Assembly: GCF_050320075.1 (NCBI RefSeq)
Contig: NZ_CP190018.1
Origin: Escherichia coli
GTDB taxonomy: Bacteria > Pseudomonadota > Gammaproteobacteria > Enterobacterales > Enterobacteriaceae
Strand: one strand, 5' to 3'
DNA: 64,000 nt
Each line of letters opens with the position of its first letter. Position 1 is the first letter of the stretch. Positions 31,299 through 31,335 of the stretch are shown here, piece by piece. The position numbers were made by a program, and so were the translations under genes. Below the pieces are notes generated by a model. The model did not search any database. It was not told the origin of the DNA and saw nothing but the letters and a program-made list of their open reading frames with translations.

Positions 31299-31335
31299 CC
31301 GTTTTCTTTCTCTGGTTTCAGATGAAAGAAAACGG
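31299..31335. other. perfect 12-bp inverted repeat upstream of sixA
   Basis: CCGTTTTCTTTC-(13 nt)-GAAAGAAAACGG, 30 bp upstream of the sixA ATG; no flanking U-tract. Confidence 0.4.

Follow-up and report, generated by a model that had tools for sequence, protein, structure and literature searches.

What does a perfect inverted repeat do immediately upstream of the sixA gene of Escherichia coli? To our knowledge, no other bacterial phosphohistidine phosphatase of the SixA type is known. SixA controls the nitrogen-related PTS, and its gene is a member of the sigmaE envelope-stress regulon (PMC6282199), linked to sigmaE by a ChIP-seq peak in Salmonella (PMC4577112) and co-induced with sigmaE regulon genes (PMC6850105). 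Our literature search found no paper on a sixA hairpin or leader, nor on the control of sixA expression. Coordinates of RNA ends in the sixA leader appear in the literature only as rows of supplementary tables, and the supplements of Ettwiller 2016 and Yan 2018 contained no sixA match.

In the window (the whole 64,000-nucleotide stretch of E. coli DNA that was analysed), fadI (27708-29018), fadJ (29018-31162) and sixA (31365-31850) all lie on the + strand, and the fadJ-sixA spacer that houses the repeat measures 202 bp. A scan for consensus promoters and terminators found none in this spacer. Downstream of sixA, at 31864-31900, lies a canonical terminator (GGCCCG, a 14-nt loop, CGGGCC, then TTTATTTTTTT), which the scan missed because its loop limit was 8 nt.

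The repeat specifies a single-copy 16-bp hairpin

Direct reading and a repeat search found the perfect 12-bp inverted repeat reported in the preliminary description to be exact: the arms CCGTTTTCTTTC (31299-31310) and GAAAGAAAACGG (31324-31335), each of 12 nt and separated by 13 nt, are 100% complementary. Its placement upstream of sixA was also correct, but the distance of 30 bp was not, as an ATG at 31365 leaves a gap of 29 nt. The 13-nt "loop" is itself partly paired, with UCUG and CAGA adding 4 bp, which gives a full hairpin of 16 bp with a predicted free energy of about -22 kcal/mol. The outer helix is A/U-rich in E. coli, G-C pairs making up 4 of the 12. The coordinates of the hairpin and of the features around it are collected in Table 1.

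The element is single-copy: each of the 5403 complete E. coli genomes searched carries it at one place only, and a 66-nt probe of it is identical in 4867 of them. A scan of positions 31163-31364 with the covariance models of Rfam 15 gave no match, even at E-values up to 10. The 64-kb window holds five perfect inverted repeats of at least 12 bp with a loop of at most 30 nt, versus 0.135 expected from first-order Markov simulations of 64 kb, 12.5% of which contained at least one such repeat. Judged from these window statistics alone, a chance origin is unlikely. The other perfect repeats of 12-14 bp lie at 25485-25513 (- strand), 1267-1303, 7237-7275 and 23722-23753; the first of these is the fadL terminator and matches the sequence printed for the primary fadL Term-seq 3' end.

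Table 1. Features of the fadJ-sixA spacer and the sixA leader, in window coordinates
Feature	Position	Strand	Remarks
sigmaE-type promoter, GCAACTG-N16-TCAAA	31145-31172	+	straddles the fadJ stop codon (31160-31162); by-eye match
A6 tract	31251-31256	+	-46 to -41; invariant
Weak -35-like TTTCAT	31262-31267	+	invariant
Putative -10 hexamer CACAAT	31285-31290	+	-12 to -7 relative to 31297; presumed function
GC-rich discriminator GCCGGC	31291-31296	+	directly after CACAAT
Mapped sixA 5' end	31297	+	ATG 68 nt and stem 2 nt downstream; coordinates converted here
RNA hairpin	31299-31335	+	outer helix 31299-31310 with 31324-31335 (12 bp)
Inner helix of the hairpin	31311-31314 with 31319-31322	+	4 bp; U31323 bulged; loop GUUU 31315-31318
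Linker GCGAAUCUGGUUAACAAAAGC	31336-31356	+	invariant, mostly single-stranded, from hairpin to SD
RNA 3' end	C31342		2456835(-); 68010 reads; third sheet (M63); 7 nt after the stem
RNA 3' end	G31344		2456833(-); 39893 reads; second sheet (LB OD 2.0); 9 nt after the stem
SD-like GGUG (DNA GGTG)	31357-31360	+	start codon 31365-31367; both inside the invariant hairpin 31351-31376

The shape of the hairpin is kept while its sequence is replaced

The element was compared across 84 Enterobacteriaceae sixA loci (80 from species of more than 20 genera and four added through protein look-ups), which carry 76 distinct versions of the hairpin. Two near-invariant blocks, 31214-31298 and 31338-31396, are 95-100% identical throughout the family (85-100% for the part of the linker that begins at 31338). 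Between them, the 37-nt stretch of the repeat is replaced in other Enterobacteriaceae by unrelated sequences of 30-52 nt. All 76 versions fold as one hairpin of 36-59 nt at the same place, with a median of -20 kcal/mol and a mean z-score of -3.0 relative to shuffles. Across the sequences, stability ranges from -15 to -37 kcal/mol, the latter in locus L046, an example of the G+C-richer stems of other genera. Four further genera have the same arrangement, the lower stem CCAC/GGUG being changed to CCGC/GCGG or CUGC/GCAU. The preliminary description had proposed to look for the stem across the Enterobacteriaceae, and it proved to be conserved as a structure, without conservation of its sequence.

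Selection acts on the structure of the sense strand, which folds better than its complement in 70 of the 76 versions, with a mean advantage of 5.5 kcal/mol; the complement is weaker because many of the pairs are G.U (199 of 1390, about 14%). Changes on both sides of a pair were found within several groups. Since the compared sequences are related by descent, the shuffle counts are not probabilities. In the Kosakonia/Phytobacter clade 6 of 17 pairs have changed on both sides, where 0 of 500 shuffles reached any of five measures, and in the lower stem, aligned for 71 sequences, 4 of 6 pairs and 46 cells have done so, the cell count and the covariation score each being reached by 0 of 500 shuffles and the pair count by 151 of 500. 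Two pairs are changed on both sides in Escherichia (for example CCGTCTTGTTTC/GAAACAAGGCGG in locus L005), two in Citrobacter/Salmonella and one in Enterobacter. One G-C pair has become G.U in the natural E. coli variant C31333T. The compensatory changes and the frequent G.U pairs point to an RNA structure, and the complete sequence turnover between genera leaves little doubt that selection maintains the shape of a hairpin in the sixA-sense RNA, and not a DNA operator. Chance is excluded by these comparative data, and not by the window counts, because the structure is maintained in at least 80 genomes.

The invariant blocks cover the synonymous sites of sixA codons 1-10 (CAA GTT TTT ATC ATG CGT CAC GGC GAC) and are far more conserved than the third positions of sixA further downstream, which suggests a constraint at the RNA level, or a regulatory one, beyond a simple promoter. 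Two small hairpins in this part of the leader and the early codons show no variation among the sequences. The first, 31351-31376 (AAAAGC-GG-UGCA-AUA-UGCA-A-GUUUUU), encloses the SD and the AUG, and the second, 31382-31398 (UGCGUC-ACGGC-GACGCA), covers codons 6-11. These near-invariant 180 nt or so around the hairpin, synonymous sites included, are a more unusual feature than the hairpin itself.

RNA ends mapped in vivo bracket the hairpin

For the 5' end, Kim et al. 2012 (PMC3415461, supplementary file 2) list one sixA TSS, 2454902(-), with 93 reads and a 68-nt UTR, obtained by TEX-enriched 5' RACE-seq from mid-log cells in M9 glucose. The upstream sequence printed there ends ...AAGGCACAATGCCGGCC, which sets the TSS at C31297 of the window, a position given by a single TEX-based data set. 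The preliminary description had considered a 5'-UTR RNA structure, to be given up if transcription started downstream of an unconserved stem; with a mapped 5' end upstream of the repeat and a conserved structure, that proposal is supported.

The sequence preceding C31297 resembles a promoter. CACAAT is 96-100% conserved, and its only variant, CAAAAT, keeps A-11 and T-7. The A6 tract resembles what we take to be a proximal UP subsite, and the assignment of TTTCAT as a -35 element is likewise assumed from promoter anatomy. When +1 is set as the seventh base after the hexamer, 0-2 unpaired 5' nucleotides precede the stem in 76 of 77 distinct sequences, and the same arrangement of at most two unpaired nucleotides followed directly by the stem recurs in Klebsiella, Atlantibacter, Siccibacter and Buttiauxella. 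A stem placed directly at the transcription start explains why conservation within it is highest in its first bases (CCAYC) and the GGUG that pairs with them. E. coli ET245 (locus L086) carries a 5-bp deletion, TGCCG at 31290-31294, which removes the last base of CACAAT and part of the discriminator and could, from its sequence, be a natural promoter mutant.

Other candidate elements in this region were set aside. The palindrome CATTC-NNN-GAATG (31265-31277), considered as an RNA hairpin or operator, loses its 3' half in Atlantibacter, Siccibacter and Buttiauxella; this decay in distant genera is better understood if the stretch is promoter DNA and not an RNA hairpin. An upstream ORF from the ATG at 31289 was rejected as well, the length of the hairpin varying out of frame between genera and no ORF being conserved. 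A search by eye for sites of Sigma54, CpxR, ArcA, CRP, FNR, FadR and MerR-type regulators gave none that was convincing.

Further upstream, the sigmaE-type site fits the motifs GGAACTTTT and (T/C)GGTCAAAA with their preferred spacing of 16 nt (PMC1312014). It is conserved, reading GAAACTG-N16-TCAAA in other genera, but seems to be absent from Atlantibacter. From this match we infer a distal sixA start near 31178, which would give a leader of about 187 nt with the hairpin internal to it. A second site, TGaCTATACT (31227-31236), resembles an extended -10 of the sigmaS/sigma70 type; its variants TATATT, TACACT and TATGCT all keep TAnnnT, like a working -10 hexamer. TTGACT-18-TAAAAA overlaps this site, at which no TSS is reported.

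At the other side of the hairpin, the Term-seq data of Adams et al. 2021 (PMC7815308, supplementary files 1 and 3) contain the 3' ends 2456835(-) and 2456833(-), which the sequences printed there assign to C31342 and G31344 on the + strand of the window. With growth conditions assigned to the sheets by caption order, 3' ends after the hairpin occur in two of the three conditions and are not seen in LB OD 0.4; their read counts are near the low end of the minus-strand values in these tables. In LB OD 0.4 the spacer has a single 3' end, 31248, which scores 6.7 as an intrinsic terminator and shows no Rho dependence. It follows, without a U tract, a hairpin AAUGGCG...CGCCAUU (region 31191-31248), whose 3' strand belongs to the invariant block and whose 5' strand is variable, Citrobacter pairing in a different register. 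The end at 31248 may be the 3' end of fadIJ or that of a sigmaE-dependent RNA of about 70 nt.

A proposed protective 5'-terminal stem-loop

The explanation that in our view best accounts for these observations, and to which we give about an even chance, is a stem-loop at the 5' terminus of the main sixA mRNA. It would shield this end from RNase E and RppH and survive as a remnant of 46-48 nt. A paired 5' terminus disfavours RppH and the 5'-end-dependent entry of RNase E, as is known from ompA and model mRNAs. Emory, Bouvet and Belasco reportedly found in 1992 that the hairpin hp1 of the ompA 5' UTR stabilises the mRNA, and the dependence of RppH and RNase E on the 5' end is said to have been described by Deana and co-workers in 2008.

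Under this explanation, the proximal promoter, with its -10 CACAAT and GC-rich discriminator, would initiate at C31297 or A31298, C31297 presumably being the true initiation site, and the transcript would begin with at most two unpaired nucleotides followed directly by the stem. Such a terminus would be a poor substrate for RppH and a poor entry point for 5'-end-dependent RNase E, and the sixA mRNA would gain a longer life, the benefit thus being protection from decay. A cut in the invariant single-stranded CUGG|UUAAC downstream of the stem could then let 3' exonucleases trim back until they stall 7-9 nt from the stem, and the short RNA seen by Term-seq would be the resulting hairpin remnant of 46-48 nt.

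Several features recall ompA hp1. First, a stable hairpin begins 0-2 nt from the mRNA 5' end, within the range of about 0-3 that marks stem-loops of the hp1 type. Secondly, shape matters rather than sequence, as the full sequence turnover and the compensatory changes of the sixA hairpin indicate. Thirdly, a single-stranded segment separates the hairpin from the RBS. Unlike hp1, the sixA hairpin also has an internal position, within the longer leader made under sigmaE, and it gives rise to a short RNA that accumulates with a defined 3' end. Several observations speak against a protective stem-loop: the -35 (TTTCAT) is poor and the mapped start is a C; the list of constitutive promoters from RpoD SELEX names the yfcV-sixA spacer, not fadJ-sixA; in sigmaE-driven and fadIJ read-through transcripts the hairpin is internal, where it would be useless as a shield unless these are processed; and premature termination would account for the 3' ends just as well.

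Processing or premature termination as alternatives

The mapped 5' end could itself be a product of processing. TEX digests structured 5'-monophosphate ends poorly, so that a processed end at the base of a hairpin can be spared and pass for a TSS. All sixA transcripts would then start upstream, by sigmaE near 31178, by a sigma70/sigmaS-like promoter near 31231-31236 or by read-through from fadIJ, and an endonuclease would excise the hairpin, creating the ends at 31297 and 31342/31344; the hairpin would be a determinant of cleavage or stability and not the native 5' end. The upstream sigmaE promoter is present, and in the long-leader fold the mapped ends face each other at a possible basal helix, CCGG 31292-31295 with CUGG 31342-31345, from which ends at 31297 and 31342 leave a 3' overhang of about 2 nt, resembling RNase III geometry. 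Leader hairpins processed by RNase III are known from rnc, pnp and the R1.1 signals of phage T7, and the sixA leader shares with them a long irregular hairpin with ends opposite each other near its base.

Unlike those leaders, sixA has a basal helix of just 4 bp and a promoter-like -10 preceding the 5' end. No covariation was found in the basal helix, where each of the 11 departures among 71 sequences is an uncompensated break, and the extended helix was dropped as a candidate RNase III substrate on these grounds; the internal loop between the helices is also asymmetric (3 nt versus 6 nt). The context GGC|CAC at 31296/31297 is unlike an RNase E site. Processing would further make coincidences of two features, the A tract at -46 to -41 and the exact placement of a hexamer with A-11 and T-7 at -12 to -7. 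We regard excision from longer transcripts as unlikely, though worth retaining beside the protective stem-loop.

Premature termination was doubted in the preliminary description, which had called the repeat unlikely to be a terminator for want of a U-tract on either side. That absence stands, the + strand continuing with GCGAATCTGGTTAAC and the - strand with TGGCCGGCATTG, neither with a T run, but the Term-seq 3' ends 7 and 9 nt after the stem weaken the dismissal drawn from it. A premature terminator, or attenuator, without a U tract would stop polymerase from the sixA promoter or from further upstream 7-9 nt past the hairpin, more often in stationary phase and minimal medium, limit SixA and release the short RNA. 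The ends at 31342 and 31344 vary with condition and coincide with the point at which RNA leaves an intrinsic terminator; the stems of terminators are typically also variable in sequence and conserved in shape, and UUCUGGUU, which follows the stem without variation, is moderately rich in U. Adams et al. (PMC7815308) argue that many 3' ends in 5' UTRs are regulatory; the sixA site itself appears only in their supplement. The sixA hairpin resembles the 5'-UTR terminators and attenuators of that study (Adams et al. 2021, PMC7815308) in its variable sequence and its condition-limited 3' ends 7-9 nt downstream, and differs from them in having no U tract and, in E. coli, an A/U-rich stem, and in that no competing antiterminator was found.

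Against termination, the E. coli tail GCGAAUCUG contains no U run and the terminator scan of the spacer was empty. The sequence directly after the stem is GCGAAUCUGGUU in E. coli and AUUCUGGUU in most genera, and lacks the U run by which intrinsic terminators are recognised. The E. coli stem has few G-C pairs in its outer helix (4 of 12), the 3' ends have low-end read counts, and a distance of 7-9 nt fits terminators but is equally expected from exonuclease stalling. Termination also gives no reason why the stem starts at most 2 nt from the mapped 5' end in every genus. We hold a terminator of this kind to be doubtful, to the same degree as processing. A more elaborate form, in which a condition-dependent attenuator without a U tract stops polymerases from the sixA promoter at +46/+48 in stationary phase or minimal medium and the leader of about 180 nt (31214-31396, with the synonymous sites of codons 1-10) senses a factor, appears improbable.

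The hairpin makes no contact with the ribosome-binding region

The linker between hairpin and SD contains GG|UUA, presumably resembling an RNase E site, and a run AAC-AAA-AGC that we read as an Hfq-type motif. A MazF cut site is listed for sixA, at the ACA 31349-31351, 16 nt upstream of the AUG (PMC5001579); cleavage there would leave a nearly leaderless sixA mRNA (PMC5001579). Pairing of RybB, whose sequence was confirmed, with AAAAGCGGUG (31351-31360) was tried and rejected, its -13.3 kcal/mol ranking sixth among the 67 start regions of the window and being matched by 9% of shuffles.

The preliminary description had suggested that the structure occludes or exposes the ribosome-binding region of sixA, a suggestion that the analysis does not support. 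Between the end of the hairpin and the SD core lie 21 nt, and the anti-SD pairing is unconserved. The hairpin is a self-contained module: the predicted unpaired probability of the SD is 0.34 with it or after its deletion in silico. As in leaders that occlude the SD, such as RNA thermometers and anti-SD hairpins, the sixA hairpin lies in a short 5' UTR upstream of the RBS; unlike in these leaders, the SD and AUG are outside the hairpin, and its deletion leaves the predicted accessibility unchanged.

A more specific form of this idea makes the 5' arm an anti-SD held in check by the 3' arm, so that opening of the hairpin allows CACCGUUUU to pair with AAAGCGGUG and silences sixA. Blocking the 3' arm in silico in the E. 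coli sequence does lower the unpaired probability of the SD, which falls from 0.34 to 0.01 as 31297-31305 and 31352-31360 form 9 bp with each other. Over 80 sequences, however, the same test gave 0.27 versus 0.30 with shuffled 5' arms, with strong occlusion in just 14 of the 80. The hairpin, at -15 to -37 kcal/mol, is moreover far stabler than the alternative pairing and is transcribed first, and a factor acting in trans would need to keep up with a stem that has another sequence in each genus. We regard such a translational switch as very improbable.

A DNA palindrome bound by a dimeric regulator, as the preliminary description had also proposed, a cruciform at the sixA promoter or a mere chance repeat is hardly credible: E. 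coli does have a perfect repeat at +3 to +39 relative to a promoter, a place from which repressors can act, but half-site sequence and arm length are unconserved while both flanks are invariant, and the G.U pairs leave the complementary strand much less self-complementary.

Significance

Hairpins of the ompA type that stabilise mRNA from the 5' end are already known, and we found no paper describing the sixA hairpin itself; current understanding of RNA decay would stay unchanged by it. If an attenuator were the true explanation, it would set the level of the SixA phosphatase, and hence the phosphorylation of the nitrogen PTS. For sixA, the analysis provides a defined proximal promoter, a 68-nt leader that opens with a hairpin under structural selection, and a short RNA of this hairpin in vivo. 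What was an anonymous palindrome thereby becomes a candidate determinant of sixA mRNA stability that can be tested. For the Enterobacteriaceae, the locus offers a clean natural case in which the shape of an RNA is selected while its sequence turns over completely between invariant flanks.
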